Assembly (NCBI GenBank): GCA_036630325.1
Contig: CP142729.1
Coordinates: 992,001-1,056,000 of the forward strand
Direction: 5' to 3'
Source of the DNA: Vairimorpha necatrix
Taxonomy: Eukaryota
DNA length: 64,000 nt
Below, piece after piece: positions 1-62,586 of the stretch. Every line of letters begins with the position of its first letter. The first letter of the stretch is position 1. A program made the translations under genes and the position numbers. The notes below the pieces were generated by a model. It worked only from the letters and a program-made list of their open reading frames with translations, did not search any database and was not told where the DNA came from.

Positions 1-224
1 AAAGGAGAAGCAATCATTAGCACCTAAAATACTTGCATCTTTAGACAGTAGAAATACCAAATAAATATATATTTGTATGCGAAATTTAATTTAAAAAAGT
101 ATATAACCATAAACCTATATAATTCTAAATAACTTAACATATTTTAAATTAAATTTTTTGATTTAACAATCTATATAGTTCTTTGAACATTTATTTAATT
201 TTTCTTATATAAACGTTATTTATA

Positions 225-298
225 TTTTTCATTGTTGGTTTATTGTAAAAAAAGATTTTCTGAAAAAATCTATTTTATAATAAACCAACAATGAAAAA
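225..298. repeat. ~74-bp near-perfect palindrome/hairpin
   Basis: Left arm TTTTTCATTGTTGGTTTATTGTAAAAAAAGATTTTC is the near-exact reverse complement of GAAAAAATCTATTTTATAATAAACCAACAATGAAAAA. Confidence 0.85.
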
Positions 299-792
299 AA
301 TGAAAATATATTGCGGGCAAAAAAGAAACAATACCATAAATGATTATTATTGTTGAAAAGAGTGAATGAGACTGAACGAAATTGCAGATTTATTTAAGAA
401 CCTTTTCTTTTATAATGTGTCTGAAAACAATGGTTTGTGATAACCATGTCGGATTGGACAAACTTGTACTGAAACAGTTTGGTATGTGATGAATAAAAAT
501 GATTGTTAAATAGAGTTACAACAATTATAACTAAATCTGGAATAAACATTTGTATCTATGCATATATATTTGTTGTTTTAAATGTCATAAGTGCTTAGTA
601 ATTTTTGTCCCTTTCTTGCTCCTCTTTTTTTTGCATTTCAATTTTGGGGTTTTAAAAAAATCTAAGCGCTTCAAAAGGATGGAGGTCTAATGTATCCTTC
701 ACCAAAAATCTTCATATCATCTTATTACAAAAATTCCAAAAAAAAAAAACAAATACATTGTTGTTTTACTAAAAAAAATCTTTTTTTATTGC

Positions 793-3480: not shown

Positions 3481-5767
3481 TAATTCAGAAAATGTATAAA
3501 TAATTATATAATTTAATACAAGAATACTTGTTATATAATTTATATGTAACTTTACTTATCCATTTATGTGAAATTCATCAGTCAACTATTGTACCGACAA
3601 TGAACATCTAACTCCGGGATGAAATACAAATGAAAATTGGATATTTGACTACTAAGAACCTCAAAATAGATATTAAAATTTGCTATAAATTAGTGTATAA
3701 TGTTAAAATAAAAATGTTACAGAGAAGAAATTGTTAATGATACTCCTTTTAATGTATAGAGGGCAAGGTAAGGTCCAGCGAAAATTGGATTAAAAATTAC
3801 CATAATAAAGAAAAGTGGTATGTTGTGTAAAATTTGTGTCTCGAGTATTTTATATATCAACCATTGTAAGAGCATAAAATTTCAGTTAGATTACATTAAA
3901 GAGTTAGACTATAAGCCAGAGAAGGGAAAAAAATATTTTAGTAGCACTCAGGGATACTTCAATCCCCACAATGATAATTATGATTGAGAAGATAATAAGT
4001 CAGACGAAAATTTTGTTATTTCTATTTAGAAGAAATAGTGTATTTAAGATGGCTTTATATAAAAATATTTTATAAGATGTTTTTTAACAAGAGAGTCAAT
4101 TTTGATTGTAATTAAGTAGCAGGGATAGACCTTAAGCAGGTACGATAGAATTTACATTAAACTTATCCAACGATACTTAGGATTCTAGCTCATCAAAGAT
4201 TTTCCATGTTTTTCTGGCGCAACATATAGCTTAATATCCCTAAACTTTGGCTTTGGAGAATATTTTTCACTTTATATCTCGTGCTATTTGTTTGCAGTTA
4301 AAAGTGGATAAACCTACATAAAAACGAAAGGATTAATAAGAATTTCTTATAAAATGGTGTAATAAGATTTATGACTACTAAAACTTCTTCCATGGCAAGT
4401 GTAGTACAGCAAGCTGCGCTGGATCATTTGGACTTTGGCACGAGGAAAAATTATTCAATATAGCTCGGATCGCGGCAAAGTGACTGCATAGATATACTTG
4501 ATTATCATTGTAATAATAATATAAGGAGAGACTCGTCGAATTAGCGCAAAAATTCCCTACAGTTACATGTATTTATCACACGACCCACAAACTCATGTCC
4601 CGCTATTTTCTATTAGTCTACTTTTTTTTCTAGTTGCCTGCCATTTTCTTATACCCTGTTCCCGAACACGTAGGATGAATTCGCTGAGACATTCTATTAT
4701 TATACCTGTCAAGTCTATTATTTAGCCAGGATCTTACTCATGAGTCTTCAATCATGGGTCCAACTAAACTTTGCTTAGCAGATACCTTAACGTCTATAAT
4801 TTATCAAAATTAATAAATTTTAACACTAAATGATAATCTTTGTGTGGCCTTACGCACATAAGTTTCATTTATTCCTATAGATATTTATAATTTGATTTTT
4901 CACATTCTCTATAAGACTAATTGGATTAAGAAAATAGAAACCCTCTGGCGCTCCTGAGACAAACTCCTCCATAGCAAAGGCGAACTCTGCTTTCGATCTC
5001 CGGGCTAAGGAAACCTACTCAATATTGTGTGTCTAATTATTAGGAGTCTTCGCGAATATGCTTAACGGACAAGTTTTTAAATATCGGGAAGATTAGGAGG
5101 ATGGGAATTGCAAGTCCACCTCTTCACGGGGCTTTCACTTTTTTATCCTCAAAAAAAGTGCAAAAAAGAAGGAGAAATTAGGGTACATAAATATTTGACC
5201 ATTATTACAGTATAAAACAAGAAAGAGATCATGTAAACATCTACTATTTAATTTTTGCTACATGCATTTATAGAGTATTGTTAAATAGAATAAGGAGAAT
5301 TTTTTATTTTGTATCTTACTATGTAAATAGATTAAGAGCCAGATTGAAGTTTTATTAAGTCCCATACATACCAAGAACTACTTATCCGTACTGGCCTCTG
5401 TTCCACAAATGAGTTAGTGTAAACTTTAATCATAGAATTATTAAATAATAGAATTGTCAATAGCGAATGTTCATATATCTCAAATTTAAATAAATTTATA
5501 TTGTAGTTCTTAAATGTAACAGGTAATATTTTTAAGAAGTGCTACTCTTTTGTTTCATTAATTGTGAGGCTTGAACTTATTGTTTAATTTTTAAATAAGA
5601 TCAAGGTCTTTCTTCGATCTTTATAACCACGCCAAGCACCCACACTTAATTAACTTTATAACTTTTATTGTACTTTATTTTGCTGTATAAATATTTTCAA
5701 CTTTAAAATTTTAATTTGTACGGCAACCTTTTTATTACAAGTCTGGGTTTAATAAATATTTGATAAT

Positions 5768-6526
5768 GGTGCCCTTATCCAAGTGGTAGAAGGCGATGCT
5801 TCCATTATGCAATGGCTAGGTTCGGTTCCCAAGAGCACAAAAACGGTCCTCTTTTTATGATGCAACGGAAGAACCAAACATTAAAAATGTCAACGATGAA
5901 AATTAAGTTGATTCGATGACTTAGTGTGTCCAGCCACAAAGGGATTAGCATCTAGTGTATAAACTCACCAAGGCCTAAAACCAGGGTCCCACTACATGTG
6001 GTGACTTAATGATGCATAAAAGTATCTAATGAGTACGGCCTAGTTAAAGCCCATGGTTGGTGCACTCTAGAGTGGGATCCTAGAGTTAACTAAGAGACTA
6101 GACGAAGTAGGGCAATAAAAGGTTTATAGTTTTTTTTACTAATATTCTAAAACACGGTGGCCGTATCTAGTGTACGTTTTAGATTACGACAGTACAATCA
6201 AAATGCCGATTTGTTGATGAAGCGGTATAAAGTGAACCGTGTGGGTCCAGATAATTGTAAAGTTCTTTGAGTTAGTACTAAGATGTCTTTCCTCGGATTA
6301 TCTAATTTATGCCGTTAAGTATATCCTCTGTGAAATCGCTCTCGACGAGATTTCATGCATATATTCAAAATGTTCTCTTTGTCTAAAATCCATGTATACA
6401 GCATAACATCCAGCACTGATGCCTTTTATGATAAATTATAGTGAGTAAGAATCTTACTAAATCTGTTTGATAAGGATAACACCCAAATACCTATGATCCC
6501 TACGCCTTACTTGCAAAGAAAAAAAA
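5768..6526 (+). mobile_element. tRNA-headed, A-tailed SINE-like repeat, copy A
   Basis: Head GGTGCCC TTATCCAAGTGG...GGTTCGGTTCC..GAGCAC (A/B-box-like, acceptor-stem-like), ~680-bp body, ends CTTACTTGCAAAG-A8. Homology to other copies starts at the tRNA 5' end. Confidence 0.65.
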
Positions 6527-7233
6527 TTAACAAATATTTATACTAACAAAGATCAAATTTTAAGTCTACTTAAAATTGTTTTGATCTTTTACTTATATTG
6601 ATAAAAATGCTTCGTTTTTGAAGCTTTGGTATAATAAAAAGGAATGCCTATTTGTAATTATATTTTTGATTCTATAAAATTAAGGACAAAGAAAATTAAA
6701 TTTGTTTATACTTCAACATATTGATTATTTACCTTTTCCCCTCAGACATACCCATTGAATAATACCCACTTAATAAAAGGATTTTGTTAAAAATTTGCCA
6801 AAAATTTAAATTACTGAAAATGAGTTTTATTATTTATTTGTTTATATGTTTTAAAGAGTCGCACTCAGACAGGAGAAGTTTAAAATATGAATGTATGATT
6901 TTTACAAAAAGAAAATACCATATGAATAGATGTAAATTTAGGGACGACTTTGTAATAAAATTCATAAAATAAATTTTAAACAAGTTTATTTTTACACACT
7001 TGATTTTTTTATATCAGATTATTGTTCTCAAATTCAATTGTTTTTCTCTTGTATCTTTCAATTAGATAATCTAGCGACTTAAAGAATATATACAAAAAAT
7101 ACGTAGAATCGCGCATTGTTTCTATTTAGATCATTTAATCGACATCTCTAAACGATTTTTTGACTAAAGAGTAATATTATTTATCTGTCAAACACATCAA
7201 TGAACTTTCTAAAAAATAATTTTTTTTTAACCC

Positions 7234-8730
7234 CTGCTTTTCGATTGGAAACGGACAACAGCAAATAATTGCTATAAATTTTACAAACGACGACTATTCA
7301 CCATAGTACTGGTTAATAAATACCAAATGTTCATAAAGACTCCTAGGGGATCGCCTTCTATATGATGGAAGCCAATTACTTACAAATGGGAATGGCATTC
7401 GAAAACCTTGAAAAAAGTTAGAAGGTTCGAAGCCATAGAAACAAGATAAATCTAAACATATGGGAGTCCACTAAATGTTGTAATGAAGCATTATTGGTCA
7501 ATCCCAAGAACATTAATTCTATAAACTTCTTGGGAAATGCTTCTTGCAACGGGACAATTTAGAATTGACAAAAGAGATTGTAGATAAAATTAGAACCGTT
7601 GACCAAATTAAATATGTGCTACTATTTAGAAGGGTATATTTTGTTAGAGAGAGAGGTCGTGACGTAGAAGCCTAAGATGATTTTTTATCGTATTTATATG
7701 CATCGTCGTATTATTTATTCTTCTTGTACAGTCTAGGATAAATTTACGATCTATAGAAAATTTTGAATGGGGCGGGAGTGGTTTACTCAAATCCTATCTG
7801 CCGACTTAGAACTCCCAAAAGTACTCGAAAATATGTACTGAATTGGGATCTATTACAAAAAGGAGAGTAAATTCACAGATGCGCTTGGAGTTTTCAAATT
7901 TTTAGGGCCATTAGTAAAGTTTGATTTTTATAAAAATGATGTCAATCTTCAGATTGAATATCTATGAGATCACAGAGAACACAGAAATGTGTTCAAAGAT
8001 CTCAAATAAATTTATGATTCATAGCAAGCAAAATAATTCTTTCTGTTAGATTAAACAACTAGCTCAATCTTAAAGAAAAAATCTCGAAGCAATATTATTT
8101 ATTTATTAAGATATTAAGGTGGTTTTTTATCTAATTTGCCTCAACTGCCGCGTATTCTATCTGGTTACACCACCTTCTAGCTCCTCTACTATGTTTTTAG
8201 TTCCAGATCCTCCTTCTCGAGTCCTGCCGGTTTCAAAGGAGATGCTCTCTGTTGTGTTGTTATAAATCTCATTTGGATGTAAGCTTCGGTACTAGTTGAT
8301 AGGCTGATAACACTAATATAATTGCTTTGGTATTTTGTCACAATTTCGGCTTATGTTATGACGTATGGTAAATAAACTGACGCAATAAAAAATATTTAAA
8401 ATGTAATAACGACCAGTTCCATCTAACTCTCCTTTAAGATTGTTTTGAAGAATTGGAGTGTTGCAATTGTGATCTTATAACGAAGTTTTTGATCCATATA
8501 TAATTTACATTGTAGTAAGAGTTATTGCTGAAGAAGTTTTGTATGAAGAAGCGCGTAATATTTATTTGCTCTGTTTTGAAACCGAACCCGCCTAGTATAT
8601 ATCTTACAATTTGACAGAGTGTCTGAAGAATTTTGGAATACAAACAACTATGAACAAGCTCAGAAACTGTTTCAACTGGAGCAAATTTAAAAGCTAACTT
8701 TAAAGAGGCTCTTAATAAAAAAAAAAATGT
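7234..8730 (+). pseudogene. SSN6: SSN6/CYC8-like TPR protein pseudogene, copy 1 (LINE-interrupted)
   Basis: Cross-copy consensus CCNEALLVNPKNINSLYVLGKC...FYGLG-IYD...PKVLEIMYRIGICYKK...ALGVF resembles Ssn6 TPRs. Many frameshifts and stops. Confidence 0.65.
8094..8371 (-). mobile_element. 5'-truncated non-LTR (RLE-type LINE) 3' end
   Basis: Minus frame LPYVIT*AEIVTKYQSNY...EAYIQ...TESISFE, (TAAA)n tail and TSD-like GAAGCAATA/GACGCAATA. Absent from cassette copy 3. Confidence 0.7.
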
Positions 8731-8781
8731 AGATTATATAGTGTCAAAATTGATCCGTTTTTTAATGGTAAAAATTCTAAA

Positions 8782-9538
8782 GGTGCGCTTAGGCAGTAGT
8801 ATAATGTAATGCTTGAATTTAGAATTGTCTTGGTTTGAATCCCGGGGCACCAAAATTGTTTCTCTTTTCTATGATGCAGTTGAAACAATTCAGACGCCTT
8901 TAATATTTACGAATATCATTAAGTTGATTCAATGAAACTTTATGTGACCAGCCAAGAGATAATTAACATATAGAGTAGAAACGCATCTCAGGGCCAGAAA
9001 CATTATCACCCTTGTTGACTAAGTATTACATAAAATTGCATGATGAGTACGACCTATTTGGACTTATGGCCAATACACTCTACGGAGAAATCTAGAGCTA
9101 CTAATAGATTAGACGAAATGGGGCAATCGAAGCTCTAATAGTTCCTATTCTAATGTTCAGTAACACGATGGCCGTAAATAGTGTACGTTTTGGATTAAAG
9201 CAGCACAATTAAAATGTCGAGCTAGTGATGTGATGGTGAAAGGAGTCGCAAGTGTGATTCGGATTATTGAAAAGACCTTTGATTTAGTACAATGATGTCT
9301 CTTCTCGGGTTAATAAACTCATGGCCTTAAGAATATCCGCTGTGAAATCACTTTCGACGTTATTTAAGGTATATTTTAAAATTTTCTCTTGTTCCGTAGT
9401 CCATGAATACGGCGTAACATCCTACACTTGTGCCTTTTATGCTATATTATAGTAAGTAAGACTCTAACTGAATCAGTTAGATGTGGACCACGTCCGAATA
9501 CCAATGATCCCTAAGCCTTACTTGCAAAGAAAAAAAAA
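8782..9538 (+). mobile_element. tRNA-headed SINE-like repeat, copy B
   Basis: GGTGCGCTTAGG...GGTTTGAATCCCGGGGCACCA head, with body and A-tail homologous to copy A. Confidence 0.65.
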
Positions 9539-9971
9539 TTAACAAAAATTTATACGAACAAAGATCAAATAACAAGTCTACCATCTAAAACGTTTTAAGT
9601 ATTTACTTATATTTATAAAAATACAACGTGTTTGAAGCATTGGTTCATTAAAAAGGAACATCTGTTCGTAATTATATTTGTGACTCTGGATATTTAATGA
9701 CAAAAAAATTAAATTTGTATAAACTTCAACATATTCATTAGTTTACTATTCTTCTTAAACATCCCCAGTCGATCATTTAACCCTTTGATGATAAAAGACT
9801 TTTATTTTAAATTTGCCAAAATTTTATGTTAGGAAAATGAGATTAAATTTATTTGTTCATATGTTTTAAAAAACTGTACTCTGACAGGAATTGTTTAAAT
9901 ATGAACGTGTGATTTTTACAAAAAGAAAATACCATATAAATAGACGTTTTTTAGGGATGAGTTTTAAATAA

Positions 9972-10995
9972 GGCTAAAGTTCACTTAGACACGCAAAAAT
10001 CGATATAGGCTTTTTTTGTTTTTTTTTGCCCCTTTTTTTCAAAAATGGAGGAGAGAATTCATACAAGAGAAGAAATTGAAATCAAATATAATAATTTAAT
10101 AATCAAATTACAAGATCAATCTTGTGATATATGTTCTAATAGAATGAGGAAAGAAAGAAAAGGCAGTTATAACTCAAAATGTACTTGGAAAGGTTGTAAA
10201 AAATCGATTTCCATCTGGCATGATACGTTCTTCGATAATTGTAAACTCAACCATATATCATGTATGCAGATACTTAATATGTGGGTTCTTAATTATTCTC
10301 GAAAGCATATCTCTCAAATTTTAGGTTGTCCAAAAAAACACACAACATTATTATAAAAAAAATTAAAAGAAATGAATATTTACGACAAGTATTTATCTTC
10401 TCTAAGTATTATGGGCGGAGAAGGTATAATAGTTGAAATTGATGAGACAAAAGTTGGAAAGAATAAAAACCATAGAGGTAAATTAGTGAAGGGCTTCTGG
10501 TGTTTTGGCATGGTCGAACGTACCATCGAACGAAAAATCATAATACTATATATTAAAAAACGAAATAAAGAAACGCTTACTAATCTTTTAGTGAAATATG
10601 TAAGTACTAAAAGTACTATATATAGCGATATGTGGAGTGCTTACCATTCTTTGAATACAATATTCAATGAACACCACATGGTTAATCACTCATTGCATTT
10701 CAGGGACCCAAATACGGGAGTTCATACCAATACTATAGAAGGTAATTGGCGTTCCCTCAAAAATTCCTTACCCAATAGAAATAGGTCTCCAAATAGCGCA
10801 AAAATTTATTTGTTTAGGTATATGCTCCTTAGAAATTCCTCGGGTTCCGTCTTTGATGAATTATTAAAATTTTTATTCTACTTGTTTTTTTTTGTTTCTT
10901 CCTTAACATTTTCTCTCCTCCATTTTTGAAAAAAAGGGGCAAAAAAAACAAAAAAAGCCTATATCGATTTTTGCGTGTCTAAGTGAACTTTAGCC
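9972..10995 (+). mobile_element. Merlin/IS1595-like DNA transposon, near full length (1024 bp)
   Basis: ~86-bp near-perfect TIRs GGCTAAAGTTCACTTAGACACG... and an 8-bp TSD TTAAATAA/TTTAATAA. Inserted in cassette copy 2. Confidence 0.95.
10045..10929 (+). pseudogene. Merlin DDE transposase, one frameshift near 10335
   Basis: N-terminal Cys cluster, then VEIDET, WCFGMVER, IYSDMWSAY, VNHS and HTNTIEGNW motifs. Confidence 0.9.
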
Positions 10996-11282
10996 TTTAA
11001 TAAATTTCAAAAAACATGTGTTAAACAATTTTAAGTTGATCTTAACATACTTGGTTTTTTTATCAGATGAATGTTCCCAAAATCAATTAGTTTTTCTCAC
11101 GCATCTTTCAATTAGATAAATTGTAGTCTAGTTAAATCATAATTAAAATGCGTAGAATCGCGCATTGTTTCTATTTAGATCATTTAATCGACATCTCTAA
11201 ACGATTTTTTGACTAAAGAGTAATATTATTAAGCTGTCAAACACATCAATGAACTTTCTAAAAAATAATTTTTTTTTAACCC

Positions 11283-12826: not shown

Positions 12827-13593
12827 GGTGCGCCTAGGCAGTACTATAATGTGATGCTTTATTTAAAATTGTCTTGGTTTGAATCCCGGGGGGGGGGCAC
12901 CGAAATTGTTTCTCTTTTCTTTGATGCAGTTGAAACATTTCAGACGCCTTTAATATTTTCGACAATCATCAAGTTTATTCAATGAAACTTGTATGTGTCC
13001 AGCCAAGAGAGAAGTAACATATAGAGTAGAGACGCACTTCAAGGCCAGAAACATTAGCACCGTTGTTGACTAATTATTACATAAAAGTGCATGATTGATA
13101 TGAGCTATTTGGACTTACGGCCAATACACTCTAGAGTAAAACCTAGAGCTACTAAGGGATTAGATGAAATTGGGCAATATAAGGTCTAGTGAACCTTATA
13201 ATACAAGATTTTGTAACACTTTGGAAGAAACTAGTGGAAGACTTTGGTCAACGCAGTCCAATAAAAAATGCTGAGCCATTGATGCGGCGGTGTATAGAGC
13301 CGTACATGCAAAAAAGATGATTGTAAAGACCTTTGATTTAGTACAATGATGTCTCTTCTCGGGTTAATAAATTCATGGTCGTTAAGTATATCTGCTGTGA
13401 AATCACTTTCGACGCGATTTAAGGTATATTTTAAAAATATTTTCTTGTTCCAAATCCATGAATACGGCGTGGCAACCTACACCGATAACTTTTTTGGTAA
13501 ATTATAGTGAGATAAAATCTTATTGCATCTGTTGGATAAGGATCACGCCCAAATACCTATGATCCCTACGCCTTACTTGCAAGGAAAAAAAAA
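12827..13593 (+). mobile_element. tRNA-headed SINE-like repeat, copy C
   Basis: Homologous head (with G-run expansion), body and A-tail. Confidence 0.65.
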
Positions 13594-13634
13594 CAAATAT
13601 TAATACGAACAAAGATCAAATTTTAAGTCTACAT

Positions 13635-16600
13635 TATTGTCTGTATACATTTATTATAAATTGAGGAAATAAATAATAAGGAATAAATATTACAGAAGAG
13701 TGCATACTTCATTTTTCTTCTTACAAAAAAATCCTAACGATCTTTATTTGAAACAACTACTCCTCCATCATTTAATTTCAGTCTAGCTGTCTCGAACATT
13801 TTCTCCAGAATTTCCCCTTTACGAGTATATTTTGGATCTAATTTATCCCTACTTACTGACTTATCATTAAACATAACAAAATCCCCATCTTAAGTTTAAA
13901 CACCAATCCATAAACCTGCTTTCTTTAGCTAAAATTTTCTTTGCCTTCGATTGCACCAGAAAGTTTTCTTCCTGTTCCATCATGCTTTTTTCTAAAGGTG
14001 TATACTTTATGATCCTATGACTGAACTTAAATATCCTTGTCTTGCTTTTTCTAGCTGATCTCTAATCAAACGAACCAAATCTACACAATTTCGTAACTTC
14101 CTAATAAAATTACCATTAAATGTCTCTACCAAACCTGTAGTTCTCGGAGAATAAGGATGTATAAAACACATTTAAATCCATGCTTATTGGCCAGTTCCTC
14201 CGTCATTCTATTCTTGAACTCCTTATCGTTACTCGACAAAATCTTTTAAGGTATGCCATATTTCTTCTATATCTATCGTTCAATTGATTCAACAATAACT
14301 CCCATATCTTTTGACTTCTCCTTTACATACTCAGCCATATTTGTCCAATGATCTATCATTGTTAAAATAAACTTGTTTCCTTCTGAATTCAATCTTAATT
14401 GACCAACCATATAATCTCCCAGAATTTAAAAGAATAAGATGATAGAATACTATAATTTGACTTTTTAACTTCAGAACGCTTATCTAATGACAAATCTTAT
14501 AATTCTTAAGTATATCTCGAACCTGGGCTTCTGCAACCTCTCTTTGATCACCTTTCAAAACATAACAAGCGTCTTTGCTGAACCATGTGCTAACATCTCA
14601 TGTTTCTTAAGAACCTCTTCCACTGACACTTCCTTATCCTCTAATACTGCATCAACACAAGCAGTTCTACTTTATACATCCGCTGGATTTTCTCCACTAT
14701 AATGTGTTTTATTCCAAAATCATATTCTTGTAATAATAATGACCATCTTGATAATCTTCCCTTCATATTTCGGGACGAAAACAACCGAAACAATCCTTGT
14801 TGATTCGTTCGTAGCTCAAACTTTCCCAAATAAATACAATGTTAAATCTGTTAATGCCTTATTTACAGCCAACAATTCTTTTCTAGAGCAGAATAGTTCC
14901 TTTCCGGGTTTGAATGAACCTTACTAAAAAACCTAATACAATTTTCTCTTCTCCATCCTGTATCTGTGATAAAATCGCCTTTCTCCTTACACCAGAGCGT
15001 CCGTGTCTAAAATGAATTCCCCTCTCCTTCTGGCCAACTCCAACCGTATTGTTTCCCCAACTTCTAAAGCGCATCTATTGATCTCTTGTATTTCTCATCA
15101 TACTCAATCGTCAAAAACTTCCCTTCATTTCCCTTCTTCAGTAAACCATATAAATACTCTGTGCTCAAATACATTTCTCAAAAATTGACGCATTAATTAA
15201 TTAATCCCAAAAACGATTCCAAATTTTTCCTTGACGTGGGCAGAGGCATATCTACAATTTTCTTAATCCTATCATCATTAATTCTAATCCCATTCTTCCC
15301 ACTGTTACTCTTACAATCTTTAGCTCTTATTTTCTGTATTCACATTTTGACGCATTTAAATTCAAATCAGCCTCATCTAATAATGTTAACACTTCCTTTC
15401 AATGCACTAAGTGCGCTTCCTTATTCTGACTGTAAATTAAAATATCATCCATGTACACAATCACACATTTACCAATAAACTCTCTTAATACATTATTCAT
15501 TGCTCGCTGGAATGTTGCCGGCCCAATTTTAATCTAAATGGCATTCTTAAAAACTTCAAAAAACCTTCTCTACATTAATGCCGTATTCTCTACATCTTTC
15601 TCACTCATTTTAATTTGATGATACCCCAATAAAGCATCCAACTTTGCAAAAAACCGAGCTTCGTTTACTGATCTATCAACTCATCGATCCTTGGCATGGG
15701 ATAAGTGTCTGACACTGTAACATCATTAAATCTCCTATAATCTATACACATTCTCCAACCCACTTCTTTCTTCTAAATCATTACCACCGGACTCATCCAT
15801 GAACTCTTGGGGGGTTTAATAATTTCCTGTTTTAAATACTCTATAATTTTCTTCTTTATATAGTCCTCTAATGACATACAATTCCTATATATCGGCGTCA
15901 CAACTGGAGCAGCATTTCATGTGTTAATAATGTTCTCCTAACTTATTTATACACACATCAATACTGAAGACCTCAAATCCCTTCTTCCATGATAATGTCA
16001 GTTTGTTCCTTCTTCAAAACGGTCTTTCCAAAATTATTTCATAACCTATTTTGGTAACAACAATAAATTCTTCTGTAAACTATGTATCATTCCACCAGAA
16101 GGACAACCTAACATTATTTAAAACACCCATTTTATCTTCTCCTGCCGACTTTAAAACCACATCAGTACCCATAAAGTTAATTTTTTCTTGTATTTTTCTC
16201 TACAAATTACATTTACCGCAGAACCCGAATCTAACAATGCTTTATAACTGTTTTCTCCCTTTTATATGAACTATCGGGAACGAGTCTAATGCAAACACAT
16301 CAGCTTTCATAGAAGTAGCATAAACTATATTGCTTTTATTAAAACTATCTTCCGCTTCCTTTTCCTCATTCCTCTCCGTGCCAGATTCCATAATGGATGC
16401 AATTTTCTTCTGCAGATTAAAACATTGTCTCTTGAAATGACCCAACTTACCGTAATAGAAACATCTTACCTTCCCGTCTCTGGCGTCTCTATATATCATA
16501 ATTTAGACGCAAACTTTGCATTCTTAACTGCATCAACTTATAGACATTGGGTGAAATACCCTCAGCTTTTATCTTCTGCCACTGTATCCCACTACAAATA

Positions 16601-17133
16601 TTATATATGTACGACCACGACAACTTTTCGGAAAATTTAACATGATCATATTTCCTATATTCTCTAGTAATCCGTTGATCACAAACGTTCCCAGAACATC
16701 CTCTGGTGTTCCGTCACGTTGCGACAACCCATTCATCTTGTCCAAATAACTCATAATAGACCTCCTTGAAATTTTGTCCAAACAATTTCCTTAATTGATC
16801 TCACGCCGACGTTTCCCCTTAAATCTCACAAAAAATTAACTAAGCAGCTCCTCAAATAAACACTCAAATGAAACTGTCTTAACCCATAGTTCCGCTTCCC
16901 CTCTTAGGGCAGCCCCCAAAACCCAAATAAGAGCTGACTTCTCTACTTATTATACCCCTTCATAACATCTTAAAGTCTTCAAAAAAGTATCAGGATCATC
17001 TTCTGTCCTCTCATAAAACTTTATCCCAAACAAATTTCCATTCGTTGTCGCCAAATTATTGTCTGTAAACATTTATCATAAATTAAGGGGTACAATAATT
17101 AAGAATAAATATTCCAGAAGAGTACATACCACA
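13635..17133 (-). mobile_element. Ty3/gypsy LTR retrotransposon A, degenerate, 77-bp LTRs
   Basis: LTRs 17057-17133 and 13635-13711. TSD TACAT at 13630-34 and 17134-38. PBS TGGCGACAACG, PPT, Zn knuckle, LLDSGS protease, and RT/RNaseH/IN remnants. Confidence 0.9.
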
Positions 17134-19066: not shown

Positions 19067-19857
19067 GGAGCCCTGCTCAGTGTTCAAAGTCGATGCTTTT
19101 ATTAAGCAATGGCGAGTTCGAATTTCAGGAGTTCAAATTTGTTTTAACTTCTATAATGTAGTTGGAACAACTCAGACTATAAAAATGTCACGACAATATA
19201 AAGTTGATTTAATAGAATTTATGTGTGTACAACCACAAAGGGATATACATTTAGCGTAGAAACGCACCTCAAGGCCAAAACAGTATTACCCTCGTGGGAA
19301 CCAAATGATAAAATTAAGATTCTGATGGGTACGAAACAGTTGAAGACTGTGGCGGTAGACGCTATGGGTAGGTCCCAGAGAAAACTAATAAAGTAGAAGA
19401 GGTGGGTACAATAAAAGGTCAGGTGAAATTTTATAATATTCTGTAACAAGATGGCCAAAACTAGTAGGGAACTGATGACCAACGCAGGGCATTGTAAATG
19501 TCGGGCTGAAGATGTGGCAGTGTAAGGATCCTTGTGTGCATACAGATGACCGTAGACCAATGAGCTAAAATAATAACGTTTTTTTTTTTTTTTTTTTTTT
19601 GGGGGGGGGGGGGGGCATTAAAACACGTCGATTATATTAATCGTTATGTTTTCCCTCTAACAAGATATGTGGTATAAATGGAAAGTGTTTCTGGAGCAAA
19701 GTAGAATGAATACGGCGGAGTTTCCAGCCCTGTTGTTGTATGGAATGAATATTTAGTGAGTAAGAATCATACAGTACTAGTTTGATAAGAATCATGACTG
19801 TATTCCTTTGGTCCCCATGTAAGGTTTTCTTGCCTCTACCTTGTAGGATAAAAAAAA
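19067..19857 (+). mobile_element. tRNA-headed SINE-like repeat, copy D (divergent)
   Basis: GGAGCCCTGCTCAGTG...GAGTTCGAATTTC head, divergent body and A-rich end. Downstream sequence is unrelated to the cassette. Confidence 0.55.
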
Positions 19858-21767: not shown

Positions 21768-23948
21768 GGATTCCCGAACCCAACATATTATCTTGAGTTT
21801 AAAAAGATTCCAATATCAAAAATATTCCCATGCAAAAAAAAACTTCTGTAAATCTAAACAATTTAATTATCTTTTTAAAGTAAAACAAATCTATTATTTT
21901 TTATTCCTTAATTTTCCTTCGGAAAAAAAAAATTGTTCTCACTGCGCTCGAACCCGGCAAAAACTTCGTTTTTGTGCGGGCTGGACGCACGTGCGCCCTG
22001 GGCGCTTGACATTTATTGTTTAGCTTGCGGCTATTTCTGATTTACTGTTGTTGTAATATAACCTAAAACTTAAAAATTTGTTTAATGATCAAAATTAAAT
22101 TTGAATCCCAACTGTCGGGTTACACTCTCTGTAGATATTTGATAGTATTTCAGCCAGCTTACATATTGCACAAATATTTGTAAAATTTACTATACTTGTA
22201 CCTTCTTCGCTGCACAACTCTTACTGTTTTCGATTGACTTATGATCAATTGCCTTAAGTCAACCCTCTTTGGCTTTGGATAAATTAAGTCAATCACTTTT
22301 TTTTTTGCTGATCCTATTCTACGCATAAAAAAAATTCGTCACGCGTCTTTCGATTGTATTTCTGGCGCATCTAAAATTTTTAATTCATTTTCGAATTGAT
22401 GTATCTTGCCTTTCTCCTGTTATAATCTGTTGATCAGTAATAAATGTTGCTTTATCACCATAGCTTCAAGTTTCATGTCATTATAAAGTTTTTTTGAATC
22501 GTTTTTCTTCAATTGACATGATGCTTTAAATCACAGTATCAAATGTCATAAATCTGATCTATCTATTTTTTACATTTTAAATAACTAAACTATTCTATCT
22601 GATTCTACGTTTATCAATAAATTTTTTTTTTCATTTTGGTGTGTAAAACTATAAAATAAGCACCCTTTCGATCTGTATATCCTTATAGGGAGTAATAAAT
22701 CTTATTTGATCTTCTTGTATATAGTATTTACAAAATATATCTACCACGGTTGTCTATTCTCATTTACTGTATTTAACATCGAAAGAAACTTTTTTTCATC
22801 TAACAATAAAAAAGAAGATGACAATGTTGTACTTATCAAGATAAAACTATTCTCTCAGAGAACAGTTAAGATGCATATAATGATCAGAAAAAAAAGTCAG
22901 TCAAAATATGGCTACTTGTTATGATAGAACTCTCCAAACGACTATTGCGAGGTGGCGATGAAAATTGTTTTTCACACATCTACAACTGTTGTTTAATTAA
23001 GGAATGATAACATGTGGAAAATATAGAATCGCTCTGCGTAGGAGGTGATTGAGTACTTGGATGTAAAAATAAGAGTAGATGAAATAATTATGCCGTATTA
23101 AACGATTTAGTACATTAAGCCTAATTTTTTATCATAGACAAATTAAGGGGAGAAATCACAAGTGTGGTATAGTAATTGTATTTATTTTCCGTAATTTGGG
23201 TTCGGAATATAAGAATATATAACATCCTCTCTTCAAGATGGTTAGTCTCCTACGTCATCATCAACTCTAAGCAGATATTTTAGGTCATAATGCCTTCTCT
23301 TTACTAATCGTCCATTCATCAATCATCATCATCATATATATAAAAGAATTTTATTTAATTTTTTACCCCTAAAACTCAAAAAAAGAGAAAATTTAAAATG
23401 GTAAAATTTTTGTTTTAAAACAAAATTAAATGCTTTCACTGTATTTTATAGACAATTTTAGACCAGATACATTATTTATATTTTGTATATAAATCATTTT
23501 TGAAATTATTAGAAATATGATTTTCTCCTTTATAATTTCTTCCTTTTAGAAAAAGAAAACAAAAACAATATGAAACAAAATGTAGAAAAAATTTGTTACT
23601 AATGTGTGAAATTAACTCAATTGGATTAAAATTTGTTACTGAATTAACTTTACCACTGCTATGTTGATTCAATAATAATACTTAACTTCTAAAAATCACA
23701 TTTGCTCCTTTTTAATTCTTCCTACCAGAAATGGAAATTCAAAAATCAAAACAAGAAACAAACATAATAAAGTTGATTTACAAACATTAGAAATTTATCA
23801 ACTGAATAACAAACTCAATTAATTAATATTTAGACTAATATCAAAGCTATTTATAAAAAATCATTTTCTCATTTTTGTTTTCTTCTTTCCCAAAATGGAA
23901 TTTTAATTTTAAAAACTATAAATACTTTTTTTTTTCTTTACCCCCATT

Positions 23949-26900
23949 ATGTTTACGAAAAATCAAACAAATTGCGATTTTAGTGAACAACCAAAAGCAA
24001 CTATCACTATCTCTCAGGAGATATGTAGTAATACTGAAAATGACAATGTTATTTTCTATGGGGCCAATGCCTCTGTACATAACACAAAAAATAAAAAAAC
24101 AAATGTCAGAGAAACAAAAAAAAGGAATTTCATATTCAGTTTCTCTGGCGAAAACAAAACAATTCTTAATCCAACAAACAGCACAGAAAAAACAGCTAGA
24201 TTAACAGATAACACAACAATGCAAACTTTGACAGAAAAACTAGATCTAGCTTGCAGAATTACTAGCAGAAACCACGCCGAACATTATTGTGGAGATCTGA
24301 AAGAAGAATGTGCCTTTTGTGGTGCATTACATTTTGCTGGAGAAGCAAGCAGTAATGGATTATACAAAAGCTGCTGTCATTTTGGGAAAGTCAAATTACA
24401 AAGAACTAGAAACTTCCCAAATGAGATTAAGAATTTATTCATTGGAAAAGATAAAGATGGAAAGAACTTCAAAGAAAATATTAGATCTTACAATGCTGCT
24501 CTTTCTTTTGCTTCTCTTGGTGCTCAAATAGAAACTGTGTCTAATGGTCCATATGTATTCAAAATACATGGACAAGTGTATCATAACACTTATAATGTAA
24601 ATAATATGGAATCTAATACACCAAAGAAATATGCCCAATTATATGTAGTGGATAGTGATATGGCAAACTCACAAAGAATGACGAATCCATCTAATAGAAA
24701 TTGTGATATATATATCATGAGCAAATTAGATGGATTTATAAGATCAGCCAATCCATATTCCAATGCGTATAAAAATATGTCTGAAATAATAAAGGAGCAA
24801 AAGGAAGTGGGGAAAGAAGTTAAAGACATTTCTATGGTCTTTAATAAGAATTTAGATAGAGATCAGAGAAGATATAATGCTCCCTCTACAAGTGAAATCG
24901 CAATGATTTTCACTGATCCAAATGGAGAACCCCCATTTGAGAGGGACATTAAAGTATATAGCAAGGGTTTTAATTCTGATAATTTACACTTGGATATTTT
25001 AAGTCCACATTTAGATCCAATGACATATACTTTGTTCTATCCACATGGCGAAGCTGGATGGAATGCAAATTTGAGGCTGGAGTCTTATCTAGGAGAGGCA
25101 CAGAAGATATCTTTGTTACAATACAAAGTAGCACAGATATCCATAAGAAAAGATAGATTCAACCCTTTGCTTTATGGAGGAAAGTTGTTTCAACAATGGA
25201 TTGTAGATTCATATCTACAAGTAGAAGCAAATAATTTAAACTTCATAAAATTAAATCAAAAGAAGTTGAGGGTAGATCTTTACAAAGGTTTGGTAGATTA
25301 TGTAAATAATGGGTCAGAAAGTTCTGCCAAGCCCGTGATCTTACCATCAAGTTTTCAAGGATCTCCAAGAAATATGAGAGAGAGATACCATGATGCAATG
25401 TCAATTGTAAGAAATTTCGGCAAGCCCGATCTTTTTATAACTATGACTTGCAATCCCAAATGGAAGGAGATTAATGAGAATCTATTTGAGGGACAGACAG
25501 CAGTTGATAGACCAGATTTGGTAGCAAAGGTCTTTAACTTAAAGTTGAAAAGTATGATGGAAGAGATTTTGGCAGGAAGAGTGTTTGGGGAAGTCGTGGC
25601 TCATGTCTATTCTATTGAGTTTCAAAAACGTGGACTTCCTCATGCACATATATTGATAATGTTAAAGGACAAGATTCGGGATGAAAATATGATAGATAAG
25701 TTTGTAAGTGCAGAAATACCATCGCCCATGGAAAATGAAGTGTTACACACCTGTGTAACAAAACATATGATTCATGGACCATGTGGACTAAGTAACTTGA
25801 CAAGTCCATGTATGGAAAATGGTCTCTGCACTAAGGAATATCCTAAGGAACATAATACTGAAACAAGGATCGATAAAGACGGATATCCTGAGTACAGACG
25901 ATCTAGAGGGGCCGAGTACAATGTAAGGGGCAACATTGTTACTAATGCTAACGTGGTCCCTTATAATGCTTATCTACTTGAAAAATACAATTGTCATATC
26001 AATGTAGAAGTTTGTACTTCTATCAAGTCAGTAAAGTATATTTTTAAGTATATTTACAAGGGATTTGATTGTGCTGAAATGAGAATAACTGACAACAATG
26101 AAATTGATCATTTTGTGAATTCCAGATATGTCTCAGCACCAGAGGCTACCTGGAGATTAATGGAATACAAGATGCATGGAAGATCTCATAAGATCCATAG
26201 ACTTCCTGTGCATCTTCCACAAGAACAATTGATCACTTTCGAAGAAGGCAGAGAAGAGGAAGCCGTTAGATTGTCCGATCTTAGACAGACTCCTCTTTTA
26301 GCCTACTTCAAATTGAATGAAGTTGATGAAGGAGCACATCGATTTTCGTATAGTGAGATACCCTATCACTATACATATAAAAGGGGAGAATGGATTAGGA
26401 GAAAGAATAAGTATAGTAAGATAATTACTAGACTTTATTCTGTATCTCCAATAGAGAAGGAAAGATTTAGCCTCAGAGTTCTATTGATCAATGTAAAGGG
26501 GGTTAAGTCATATGAGGATTTGAGAACTGTAAATGGTGTAGTTTACAGTTCTTTCGCAGAGGCGGTGGAAGAAAGAGGACTTCTTCAAGATGATAAAGAA
26601 TGGGAAAGGGCTTTGGATGAGGCTGTATCAACCGAGTCCCCATCAATAATAAGAGCATTGTTTGGATATATTTGTGCTTTCAATAAGCCTAAAAATACCA
26701 AAGAACTCTTTGAGAAGTATCTTGGAGATATGTCTGAAGATCTAGATCAGAATAGTAGAGACGAAATATTAAGTAGATTAAAAGATATAGTTAATGCTCA
26801 TGGATGGAGCTTAAATGCTCTGGGTTTAGATGAGCCGATTAACTATATCAAGAATGAAAGAGCCGTCTTTGATAATGAACAAGATCTAGATCAGATGATA

Positions 26901-54076: not shown

Positions 54077-54839
54077 GGCAACCTTAGCCCAGTGGTCGAT
54101 GGCGATGCTTGAATTTAGCAATGGCTTGATTTGATACTTAGGGGCACCAAAACGATTCTCTTTCTATGATGCAATGGAAAAACTCAGACGATGAAAATGC
54201 CAACGATGATCATAAAGTTGATTCATGTGACTTAGTGTGTCCAGCCACAAAGGGATTAGCATCTAGTGTATAAACGCACCTGAAGACCTAAAACAGAAAC
54301 CCACCACATGTGTTGACTTAATGATACATAAAAGTATCTAATGGGTACGGCATAGTTAAGGGCTATGGTTTGTGCACTCTAGAGTGGGATCCTAGAGCTA
54401 ACTAAGAGACTAGACGAAGTAAGGCATAGAAGGTCTAGTAGTTTCCTATACTAATATTCTGAAGCACGGTGGCCGTAACTAGTGTACGTTTCGAATCAAA
54501 GCAGTCCAATAAAAATGCAGAATTAATGATGTTGCGGTGTAAGGAGTCGTATATGCGATATAGATTATGTAGAGATCATTGAGATAATACAATGATGTCT
54601 CTTCTGAAGCTATTACACTCATGGCCGTTCAGTATATCTGCTGCGAAATCGTCCTTGACGAGATTTGATGCATATATTTAAAATGTTCTCTTTGTCTAAA
54701 ATCCATGTATACGGCTTAACAATTTGCACTGATGCCTTTTATGACAAATTATAGTGAGTAAGAATCTTACTAAATCTGTTGAATAAGGACCACACCCAAA
54801 TACTTAAACCCCTATCCTTACTTGCAAAGTCAAAAAAAA
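54077..54839 (+). mobile_element. tRNA-headed SINE-like repeat, copy E
   Basis: TAGCCCAGTGG A box...GGGGCACCA, with a unique upstream flank, body and A-tail. Confidence 0.65.
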
Positions 54840-57084: not shown

Positions 57085-57846
57085 GGTGCGCTTAGGCCAG
57101 AGGTATAATGTGATGCTTCAATTGAGCAATAGCTGCTCGAATGAAAGAAGCACCAAAATTGTTTCGATTTTCTATGATGCAGTTGAAACAACTCAGACAA
57201 TGAAAATGTTTACGATAATCATTAAGTTGATTCAATGAAAATCATGTGTGTCTAACCACAAAGGGAATTAGCATATAGAGTAGAACCGCAGTTCAAGGCC
57301 AGAAACATATCACTTTCGTGGCGACCAAATGATACATAAAAATATCTGTTGGGTACGGCCTACTTGGAGCCTATGGCTGGTACACTCTAGGGTGCAATTC
57401 AAGAGCTAACTAAGATGTTGGTCGACGAGGAAATAAAGGGTCTCGTGGATCATATTCCGCAAGATTTTGTAACACCTTGGCTGAAACTAGTGGAAGCCGG
57501 TGGTCGATGTAGCACAATAAAAAATGTTGGGCTTTTGATGTGGCGAATCAAGGAGCCGTGTGTGCATATAGATAAAGTAGACCTTTAGGCTAATATGATG
57601 ATGTCTTTTTTCGGGGAATGGTATTAAAACAATGTCGATTAAGTATATCTGTTATGAGTTCACTGTTGACGCGATTTAGGGCATAGATGGTGTAATATTT
57701 TTTGAGATAAAGTTTACTGTACATGCCGGACCTTGCCTCTTGGCAAGTAATATGGTGTAAGTTTTTGTGAAAAAGACTTCAAAGTATCAGTTGGTCCAAT
57801 ATAAGATAACAAAATAGCTTGGCCTGGTCCTTAAGTTAGTTATCCT
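57085..57846 (+). mobile_element. tRNA-headed SINE-like repeat, copy F (divergent 3' half, cut by a Merlin end)
   Basis: Head like copies B and C. The body diverges after ~57680. Confidence 0.55.
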
Positions 57847-59654: not shown

Positions 59655-61134
59655 TTATTTACAGTTAAAAGTGGTAAACCTACATAAAAACGAAAGGATT
59701 AATAAGAATTTCTTATAAAATGGTGTAATAGGATTTATGACTACTAAAACTCCTTCCATGGCAAGTGTAGTACAGCAAGCTGCGCTGGATCATTTGAACT
59801 TTGGCACGAGGAAATATTATTCAATATAGCTCGGATCGCGGCAAAGTGACTGCATAGATATACTTGATTGTCATTGTAATAATAATATAAGGAGAGACTC
59901 GACGGATTAGCGCAAAAGTTCCCTACAGTTATATGTATTTATCACACGACCCCCAAACTCATGTCCCCAGCTATTTTAAATTGGCTACTTTTTTTTTCTA
60001 GTTTCTGCTATTTTTTTATACCCTGTTTTTGAACACGTAGGATGAATTCATCGAGACATTCTATTATTATACCTGTCAATGCTATGATTTAGCCAGGATC
60101 TTAGCATGAGTCTTCGTCATGGGTCCAACTAAACTTTAATTAGCAGATACCTTAACGTCCGTAATTTATCAAAATTAATAAATTTTCACACTAAATGATA
60201 ATCTATGTGTGGCCTTGCGCACATAAGTTTCATTTATTCCTATAGATATTTATAATTTGATTTTTCACATTCTCTATAAGACTAAATGGATTAAAGAAAA
60301 TAGAAACCCTCTGGCGCTCCTGAGACAAACTCCTCCATAGCAAATGCGAACTCTGCTTTCGATCTCCGGGCTAAGGAAACCTACTCAATATTGTGTGTCT
60401 AGTTATAAGGAGTCTTCGCGAATATGCTTAACGGACAAGTTTTTAAATATCGGGAAGATTAGGAGGATGGGAATTGCAAGTCCACCTCTTCACGGGGCTT
60501 TCACTTTTTTATCCTCAAAAAAAGTGCAAAAAAGAAGGAGAAATTAGGGTACATAAATATTTGACCATTATTACAGTATAAAACAAGAAAGAGATCATGT
60601 AAACATCTACTATTTAATTTTTGCTACATGCATTTATAGAGTATTGTTAAATAGAATAAGGAGAATTTTTTATTTTGTATCTTACTATGTAAATAGATTA
60701 AGAGCCAGATTGAAGTCTTATTAAGTCCCATGCATACCAAGAACTACTTATCTGTACTGGCCTCTGTTCCACAAATGAGTTAGTGTAAACTTTAATCATA
60801 GAATTATTAAATAATAGAATTGTCAATAGCGAATGTTCATATATCTCAAATTTAAATAAATTTATATTGTAGTTCTTGAAATGTAACAGGTAATATTTTT
60901 AAGAAGTGCTACTCTTTTGTTTCATTAATTGTGAGGCTTGAACTTATTGTTTAAACGTTAAATAAGATCAAGGTCTTTCTTCGATCTTTATAACCACGCC
61001 AAGCACCCATACTTAATTAACTTTATAACCTTTATTGTACTTTATTTTGCTGTATAAATATTTTCTACTTTAAAATAATAATTCGTACGGCAACCTTTTT
61101 ATTACAAGTCTGGGTTTAATAAATATTTGATAAT

Positions 61135-61892
61135 GGTGCCCTTATCCAAGTGGTAGAAGGCGATGCTTCCATTATGCAATGGCTAGGTTCGGTTCTCAAG
61201 AGCACAAAAACGGTCCTCTTTTTATGATGCAACGGAAGAACCAAACATTAAAAATGTCAACGATGATAATTAAGTTGATTCATGTGACTTAGTGTGTTCA
61301 GCCACAAAGGGACTAGCATCTAGTGTATAAACGCACCAAGGCCTAAAATCAGGATCCCACTGCATGTGGTGACTTAACGATACATAGAAGTATGTGTTAT
61401 GTACAGCCTAGCTGAACCCATAGCTATTTCACTCTAAAGTGGGATCCTAGAGTTAACTAAAAAGACTAGACGAAGTAGGGCAATAAAAGGTTTATTAGTT
61501 CTTATCCTAATATTCTAAAGCACAGTGGCCGCAACTAGTGTACGTTTCGAATAAAAGCAGCCCAATAAAAATGCTAAGATATTGCTGTGGGCTAAGGAGC
61601 CGTATATGCGATTTTGATAATTAAAAAGACCTTTGATTTAATACATTATTGTCTCTCCTCGGACTATCTAATTTATGCCGTTAAGTATATCCTCTGTGAA
61701 ATTGCTCTCGACGAGATTTGATGCATATATTTAAAATGTTCTCTTTGTCTAAAATCCATGTATACGGCGTAACATCCTGCACTGATGCCTTTTATGATAA
61801 ATTATAGTGAGTAAGAATCTAACTAAATCTGTTTGATAAGGATAACACCCAAATACCTATGATCCCTACGCCTTACTTGCAAAGAAAAAAAA
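61135..61892 (+). mobile_element. tRNA-headed SINE-like repeat, copy G
   Basis: Duplicate of copy A. Confidence 0.65.
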
Positions 61893-62586
61893 TTAACAAA
61901 TATTTATACTAACAAAGATCAAATTTTAAGTCTACTTAAAATTGTTTTGATCTTTTACTTATATTGATAAAAATGCAACGTTTTTGAAGCTTTGGTATAA
62001 TTAAAAGGAATGCCTATTTGTAATTATATTTTTGATTCTATAAAATTAAGGACAAAGAAAATTAAATTTGTTTAAACTTCAACATATTGATTATTTACTT
62101 TTTCCCCTTAGACATACCCATTGAATAATACCCACTTAATAAAAGGATTTTGTTAAAAATTTGCCAAAAATTTAAATTACTGAAAATGAGTTTTATTATT
62201 TATTTGTTTATATGTTTTAAAGAGTCGCACTCAGACAGGAGAAGTTTAAAATATGAATGTATGATTTTTACAAAAAGAAAATACCATATGAATAGATGTA
62301 AATTTAGGGACGACTTTGTAATAAAATTCATAAAATAAATTTTAAACAAGTTTATTTTTACACACTTGATTTTTTTATATCAGATTATTGTTCTCAAATT
62401 CAATTGTTTTTCTCTTGTATCTTTCAATTAGATAATCTAGCGACTTAAAGAATATATACAAAAAATACGTAGAATCCTACGTTGTTTCTATTTAGATATA
62501 TTATCCGACATCTTTGACTAAAGAGTAATATTATTTATTTGTCAAACACATCAATGAACTTTCTAAAAAATAATTTTTTTTAGCCC

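Follow-up and report, generated by a model that had tools for sequence, protein, structure and literature searches.

The recurrence of a tRNA-headed sequence at seven places of a Vairimorpha necatrix contig raises the question of what kind of element it is, how it was moved and how its copies came to lie together. The window, i.e. the whole stretch of 64,000 nucleotides that was analysed (G000:C4:992001-1056000, contig CP142729.1), belongs to a genome of 15.0 Mb in 12 contigs. The repeat is a SINE, as a preliminary description of the window had partly proposed: its copy number, its dispersal, the target duplications, the A-tails, the 5′-truncated copies and a LINE-derived tail sustain this reading, and a non-autonomous tRNA-headed SINE is the best explanation for the repeat as a whole (probability of about 0.9). 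The element type itself is ordinary: the SINE has a tRNA head and a tail traced to a LINE, and it was active recently.

Table 1. Positions of the SINE copies, their parts and the resident LINEs (window positions unless a genome coordinate is given; young nt, nucleotides of the young copy)
Feature	Position	Strand	Remark
Older SINE fragment, young nt 280-690	4377..4766	-	66%; absent from the preliminary description
Copy A	5768..6526	+	parts listed below; GC 38% vs 31.7% in the whole window
Copy A, tRNA-derived head	5768..5840	+	decayed Pol III promoter (A and B boxes); nearest native tRNA Ala(UGC)
Copy A, non-coding body, young nt 74-612	5841..6367	+	no excess folding and no match in Rfam, Pfam or LINEs
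Copy A, LINE-derived segment, young nt 613-712	6368..6464	+	LINE ORF end and 3′ UTR start
Copy A, last 15-16 LINE ORF codons	6373-6418	+	within the LINE-derived segment
Copy A, T-loop-like hairpin	6436-6456	+	decayed in copy A
Copy A, distal tail	6465..6518	+	not significantly similar to the LINE distal 3′ UTR
Copy A, poly(A) remnant (A8)	6519..6526	+
Spacer and broken copy of 412-aa TPR gene (~7382-8738)	6527..8781	+	inter-SINE block of the arrays
Copy B	8782..9538	+	recombinant: 5′ part F-like, 3′ part A/E/G-like
Copy C	12827..13592	+	recombinant, B-like
Copy D	19067..19857	+	closes first array; 3′ end undeleted, 3′ flank its own
Copy E	54077..54839	+	opens second array; 5′ flank its own
Copy F	57085..57794	+	3′-cut at ~young nt 717
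SINE fragment, young nt 478-690	59743..59948	-	70%; within the 4288-8653 / 59655-64000 duplication; absent from the preliminary description
Copy G	61135..61892	+	segmental duplicate of A; both flanks same as those of A
LINE-B open copy, 5′-truncated	G000:C6:721036-724438 (L144:1237-4639)		endonuclease/reverse-transcriptase LINE
LINE-A arrays (L061-L069, L072)	C1:487-497k, C3:840-861k, C4:798-835k, C6:557-574k, C6:702-724k
LINE-A arrays, continued (L061-L069, L072)	C7:333-336k, C11:616-625k, C11:671-675k, C11:717-722k, C12:499-510k

All seven plus-strand copies previously claimed (A to G) were found in the window, presenting 71–77% identity to the young copy L011, and the two minus-strand fragments come on top of them (Table 1). 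The A-tail (A8 in copy A) and the GC-richness relative to the window were likewise confirmed, as was the beginning of copies A and E in unrelated 5′ flanks, which gave a local score of 23 against a background of 19–30. The GC content of the window copies was 38%, compared with 48% in L011, and the commonest changes relative to that copy were G>A (300) and C>T (245); these substitutions, together with the drop in GC, indicate neutral decay. Moreover, T runs of at least five nucleotides were acquired by five of the seven copies, and a 17-nt deletion in the distal tail is common to copies A, B, C, E and G. The window copies are dead.

The family is much better preserved elsewhere. A DNA search of the genome returned 244 candidates, of which 40 were scored, and an 18-nt tail motif, with one mismatch at most, gave 127 matches, as opposed to none for a reversed-pattern control; the places listed for this motif cover all 12 contigs. 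The 23 best loci not of the window type measured 779–784 nt (typically ~781), were 94–100% alike and carried A-tails of 9–26, with exact 11–17-bp target duplications in 19 of them. At a further 40 places with the tail motif, out of 41 exact matches listed beyond the loci above, 29 copies began at the head, identities ranged from 73 to 96%, and 5′-truncated copies were present. For example, the truncated copies L139 (84 nt) and L104 (364 nt) were flanked by target duplications of 16 and 8 bp, respectively, and such truncated copies with duplications are a criterion of target-primed reverse transcription. When 92 long copies were gathered and eight were dropped for a truncated or nested 5′ end, 70 presented distinct, readable flanks, in which target duplications were found in 33 of 41 copies with at least 94% identity, in 8 of 20 with 85–94% and in 1 of 9 below 85%, while a control with mismatched flanks gave 3 in 1640. 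The mode of these duplications was 14 bp (13 of the 33 young ones), and 24 of these 33 had one or two additional bases, mostly A or G, between the duplication and the head. The genome-wide copy number and target duplications, pointed out beforehand as the means of checking the SINE, thereby spoke for it.

The copies differ in age, their identities grading from 99% to ~70%. Two young subfamilies, of 16 and 27 sequences, presented 99.4% and 97.7% identity to their respective consensus, and of the 23 differences between them, 13 fell in the 73-nt head and only 5 in the 539-nt body. The youngest subfamily (L017:1501-1573 and 15 alike) gained a Leu/Ser-type A box, by a promoter swap or by selection on the promoter. 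At another locus (L030:1430-3036), a young SINE flanked by a 12-bp duplication interrupts the T-loop in the head of another SINE. The SINE is non-coding and shorter than 1 kb, the longest plus-strand stop-free frame being of 68 aa (4 young copies). As for empty sites, no joint skipping the whole element was observed in the contigs of runs X1, X2 and X3, all of which covered the SINE, and those of run X4 did not cover it; the loose ends in the X2 and X3 contigs, as judged by eye, were flanks of the loci L121 and L123, i.e. of the same genome's own loci, and therefore do not indicate a second host species. Pattern scans gave no match in metagenome contigs and none in viral contigs.

The head had been correctly drawn as tRNA-derived. 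ARAGORN called a tRNA at base 1 in 22 of 23 young loci, under the label tRNA-Met(CAU), and Rfam recognised a tRNA in the young copy with 29.5 bits (cut-off of 29). In the window, the head was missed by ARAGORN and by Rfam at the gathering threshold because it is decayed there; ARAGORN also called no SINE-head tRNA in seven of seven old-type loci. The acceptor stem and the T arm of the head fold well (z of –2.5 and –3.2). In a comparison with 42 native tRNAs (32 loci picked from 63 Rfam matches), four of five heads matched Ala(UGC) best, and the head of the youngest subfamily, with its Leu/Ser-like A box, was closest to Leu(UAA). An Ala tRNA is the probable parent, by a modest margin (scores of 64.5–69 versus 56–60.5 for the next best), and a tRNA-Gly parent was set aside on this same modest margin. 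A tRNA-Met parent was rejected, no native Met tRNA being among the top six for any of the five heads. A functional tRNA-Met(CAU) was also rejected, given that no T run longer than three occurs within 610 nt 3′ of the head and that the anticodon stem is broken in the youngest subfamily. The SINE presents a T4 run at nt 684, and T4 is also the first T run 3′ of 13 of the 42 native tRNAs (loci L233–L263), so that read-through of this run has to be assumed. These T4 runs after native tRNAs bear on the length of the Pol III terminator in the parasite. Among the native loci, L241 (G000:C1:1431973-1432076) is a tRNA of ~104 nt, labelled Leu by ARAGORN and probably intron-bearing.

The opposite end of the element was compared with the tails of the resident LINEs. 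The non-LTR reverse transcriptases of this genome comprise LINE-A (1242 aa, many open frames), a type that is Dong/R4-like by its motifs, Pfam giving RVT_1 only, and the rare LINE-B, which was the only LINE tested that matched. SINE nt 619–712 presented 78% identity with LINE-B over 96 nt (E of 4e-16), spanning the LINE-B stop codon, and the score of this match was reached by none of 2000 shuffles. For the distal 65–70 nt of the SINE, 1411 of 2000 shuffles equalled or beat the score; LINE-B itself ends in A17, ~110 nt past its stop codon. In frame, SINE nt 618–665 agree with the C-terminus of LINE-B at 12 of 15 residues and with that of P0124, a full-length LINE-B relative of 1465 aa clustered with V. 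ceranae proteins, at 13 of 16. This is the only protein-coding match of the SINE, and the idea that its body might be a decayed protein-coding gene did not survive it, since only these nucleotides align, and to the C-terminus of a LINE. It is very likely, judging from these alignments, that the tail was taken from the LINE-B lineage. Two other loci, L126 and L141, which matched only the last 27–32 nt, were no LINE ends on inspection.

LINE-B is scarce in the assembly, where, besides short 3′ fragments, it is represented by a broken copy and by the open copy, which is 5′-truncated and starts at residue 380 of the 1465-aa relative; none of the 32 candidates scored, out of 108 in one haploid set, was a full-length LINE-B. 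V. necatrix is reported to be tetraploid in the available text of PMC10759460, and 12 contigs with 15 Mb amount to about one chromosome set, so that an intact LINE-B may lie elsewhere. Named LINE-B relatives occur in Vairimorpha, Nematocida, Amphiamblys and Smittium.

Other observations concerned the setting of these LINEs. The open LINE-B copy sits inside a LINE-A array, with no visible target duplication. LINE-A forms clustered head-to-tail arrays of full and 5′-truncated copies (Table 1), with a repeated non-coding tail unit of ~0.4 kb that ends in a T-rich run and has no Rfam match; these arrays are perhaps self-targeting or centromere-linked. An open reverse-transcriptase frame of 1199 aa (L143:1420-5019) is Dong/R4-like and has several broken relatives elsewhere. 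Two LINE-B relatives are linked to rRNA genes, L279 lying between large-subunit rRNA matches (1-119, 5950-6293) and L274 after one (1-2096), and two weak HDV-ribozyme-like matches, below cut-off, were seen at such relatives; some members of the LINE-B clade may target rDNA.

The tail segment shared by SINE and LINE-B contains a T-run followed by a hairpin with a 5-bp stem and a 7-nt loop, U-N-N-R-A-N-Y, which in LINE-B has the canonical form of a tRNA T-loop. A metagenome scan supplied 19 loci of LINE-B relatives, of which 11 were readable and 9 were counted, one being left out as stopless and one as a duplicate. The strict hairpin was present within 150 nt past the stop codon in four of these nine distant relatives, as against a background of 0.006 per 150 nt, and two more presented it by eye with an enlarged loop; five lacked the strict form. 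In an alignment of 11 hairpin sequences, 91% of the cells pair and three of the five pairs change on both sides, slid controls being lower; as these sequences are few, related, hand-cut and chosen for the motif, the alignment gives support and not proof. An outer helix near the stop codon presents one double change between SINE and LINE and a tRNA-like spacing, and single-sequence folding of LINE-B does not favour it (z of +0.9); together with the T-loop hairpin it suggests a tRNA-shaped module. The balance tips slightly towards the hairpin being a handle by which the LINE-B protein would seize the RNA.

The arrangement of the window copies was explained by their flanks. The 5′ flanks of A and G are the same, those of B, C, D and F are homologous and that of E is unique; at the 3′ side, the flanks of A, B, E, G and H (a SINE just beyond the window) are homologous, that of C partly so, and those of D and F are unique. 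Since the copies have flanks in common, the seven copies do not stand for seven insertions. The block separating the SINEs is a broken duplicate of a 412-aa TPR gene, the intact parent of which, on contig 7, bears the name general transcriptional corepressor. Of 20 matches to the gene fragment, 19 fell on contig 4, at 883–1055 kb, and the downstream SINE begins within ~20–60 nt of the stop of the TPR match, before the end of the gene. Derived states in nt 1–200 were shared by B, C and H with F (11, 10 and 11, respectively) and never with A/E/G, and in nt 401–782 the same copies shared 9, 11 and 11 with F versus 44, 39 and 44 with A/E/G. Being F-like in the first 200 nt and A/E/G-like in the last 380, these three copies bear the mark of unequal crossover between SINEs, and it is likely on this evidence that the arrays were built by SINE-SINE recombination.

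The window is, besides, rich in remains of Merlin, Helitron and LTR elements. A Merlin/IS1595-type transposon with terminal inverted repeats (9970-10997) lies in the block between B and C, the block after C is interrupted by 3.4 kb of inserted sequence (13633-17129) that has a ~75-nt direct repeat at each end, and an open frame of 1443 aa (23922-28253, plus strand) codes for a Helitron Rep/PIF1 helicase. A repeat at 37-703 (minus strand) recurs beside the TPR gene of contig 7 (L273:2703-3201) with 83–86% identity.

The location of all seven window copies in cassette arrays with common flanks gave some ground to the idea that the repeat is a mere part of a duplicated TPR (SSN6-like) cassette. 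This holds for the window and is false genome-wide, where dispersed tail-motif matches and dozens of copies with unique flanks and target duplications refute it; moreover, no SINE was found in the 3.2 kb fetched around the intact parent gene, and the probability left to such a cassette is negligible. A second reading, according to which the repeat would be a tRNA-led, large structured non-coding RNA of the ribozyme, RNase P or telomerase kind, with a body fold under selection, is improbable. It draws on the folding of the whole young copy (z of –1.8, one in 20 shuffles being equally good), on the preservation of body length through a long series of masters and on the slower decay of paired than unpaired body sites in old copies (0.195 vs 0.222 for G/C, 0.092 vs 0.117 for A/T), a weak difference that alignment effects would also produce. 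Against it, Rfam found only the tRNA head in the young copy and nothing in the body with E values up to 10, Pfam gave nothing below an E of 0.3 in the six body frames, and the body matched none of 26 LINE loci (DNA) or 120 LINE proteins. Windows of 120 nt in the body folded with z from –1.6 to +1.5, and only the last window reached –2.4, its antisense reaching –2.9. Conservation was flat across 25 old copies after base correction, and among 14 predicted body pairs hit by differences between old and young copies, eight were kept by a one-sided change, six were broken and none changed on both sides. Consensus folding, applied to 32 decayed copies, returned zero energy throughout, also for the tRNA head that served as positive control, and so had no power. 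The structured body of the preliminary description is unsupported, and its two hairpins do not sustain it: CTCTAG/CTAGAG is what the master itself carries, being perfect in 54 of the 84 aligned copies and free of double changes among the 12 commonest variants shown, and the pair considered compensatory between copies E (54409-54439) and B (9108-9139) has its stem mismatched in the master and in 53 of 84 copies, hence absent from the active master. This double change consists of the two commonest decay substitutions (C>T, G>A) and is not upheld as compensatory. A candidate origin of the body is the missing LINE-B 5′ UTR; for other SINEs, such a derivation is described in the available part of PMC5786205.

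With the repeat read as a SINE, its present mover is a further matter. The LINE-B protein is the rather probable one, and the fact that the youngest SINEs are 99.4% consensus-like, yet no full-length LINE-B was found, counts against it. It is doubtful that the SINE is now moved by another LINE (LINE-A, of the same clade, or the Dong/R4-like type) through its poly(A) only, the LINE-B segment being a relic: at least ten open 1242-aa frames of LINE-A and a distal tail drifted from LINE-B favour this, but the SINE has no match above noise to LINE-A, to four tails of older LINE-A relatives or to the Dong/R4-like type, the LINE-A tails seen are T-rich rather than A-rich and lie in clustered arrays, 49 of 84 SINE copies retain an intact hairpin, and a dispersed LINE-B fragment (L185) carries an A-tail and an apparent duplication of ~13 bp, as judged by eye. 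Acquisition of the SINE from the lepidopteran host is very improbable. Microsporidia and insects do exchange transposons (PMC4202319, in the part available), but the tail matches a LINE lineage nearest to Vairimorpha, Nematocida and Smittium, the head is nearest to a native tRNA, and lepidopteran SINEs are ~250–330 bp long with microsatellite tails, according to the available part of PMC8010984.

In the mechanism proposed for the tRNA-headed SINE, Pol III would transcribe the element from its A and B boxes and read through the T4 run; the tail hairpin would then be bound by the LINE-B endonuclease/reverse transcriptase, or by that of a related LINE of the clade, and the SINE RNA copied by target-primed reverse transcription into a staggered nick. 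Two ancient insertions would have come to flank a duplicate of the TPR corepressor gene, and unequal crossover between them would have generated the SINE-[TPR]-SINE arrays of contig 4, a step that explains the common flanks and the hybrid internal copies.

Such an organization has parallels among known elements, as they are described in the available parts of the publications cited. Similarly to the tRNA-derived SINE2 with a LINE tail (PMC5786205), the element combines a tRNA head, a body of unknown origin, a LINE 3′ part, an A-tail and target duplications; the differences are that here the LINE part includes the last ORF codons and stops ~70 nt before the A-tail, and that the body matches no LINE 5′ region among those testable. 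The eel UnaL2 and its partner SINE likewise have in common a 3′ tail with a conserved hairpin, which in UnaL2 is required for retrotransposition; the LINE clade and the hairpin are others, the present one having a 5-bp stem, a U-N-N-R-A-N-Y loop and a putative function (PMC1636434). Fungi provide the nearest well-studied relatives, with long SINEs such as MgSINE (472 bp), mgsr1 (800 bp), Egr1 (700 bp), EGH24 (900 bp) and also Foxy, which are similar in length and in copy number (tens to ~160), although they belong to another host lineage and the likeness is one of description (PMC5063351). The length of ~760 bp, regarded at the outset as unusual, lies within the 700–900 bp reported for fungal SINEs in that source. 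In Plutella, the tail of PxSE5 is 84% like the 3′ end of PxLINE1.1, a LINE with 13-bp target duplications, but PxSE5 differs in its 5S-derived head, its 43-bp common part and its microsatellite tail (PMC8010984).

Among microsporidia, the available part of PMC3614468 gives an unclassified ‘SINE’ fraction of 28,669 bp (0.18%) for Nosema bombycis, i.e. SINE-class repeats in a related species, with no family, structure or partner given there. The literature searched yielded no description of a microsporidian SINE family or of the present tail motif. The word ‘SINE’ is absent from the available main texts of PMC10759460, PMC7313128 and PMC4202319, the supplements of which may list the repeat as unclassified; SINEs are absent in the species of PMC11585130 and appear as a category only in PMC13702014, likewise as far as the available parts go.

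Dispersed SINEs are known as crossover points in Alu-Alu unequal recombination, which leaves hybrid copies at duplication junctions. The present arrays differ in that a broken TPR gene is repeated, in a parasite genome of 15 Mb. A wider proposal is tentative and, taken whole, unlikely: that this is the first microsporidian SINE-LINE pair, that, throughout a wide clade of LINEs with a single ORF (27–34% protein identity), a tRNA-shaped tail would serve as a reverse-transcriptase handle, that tRNA-like folds would occupy both ends of the SINE, that the SINE would outlive its partner in some haplotypes and that recombination would reshape gene content.

The recent activity of this family implies that retroposition driven by Pol III has persisted in a reduced parasite, and the arrays show SINEs driving the local duplication of a gene. 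As a putative RNA handle, the tail hairpin is small and amenable to testing in a hitherto unstudied clade of LINEs, and the SINE insertions are possible markers for haplotypes and strains. In the annotation of the V. necatrix genome, tRNA scanners would report dozens of false tRNA-Met genes on account of this element.
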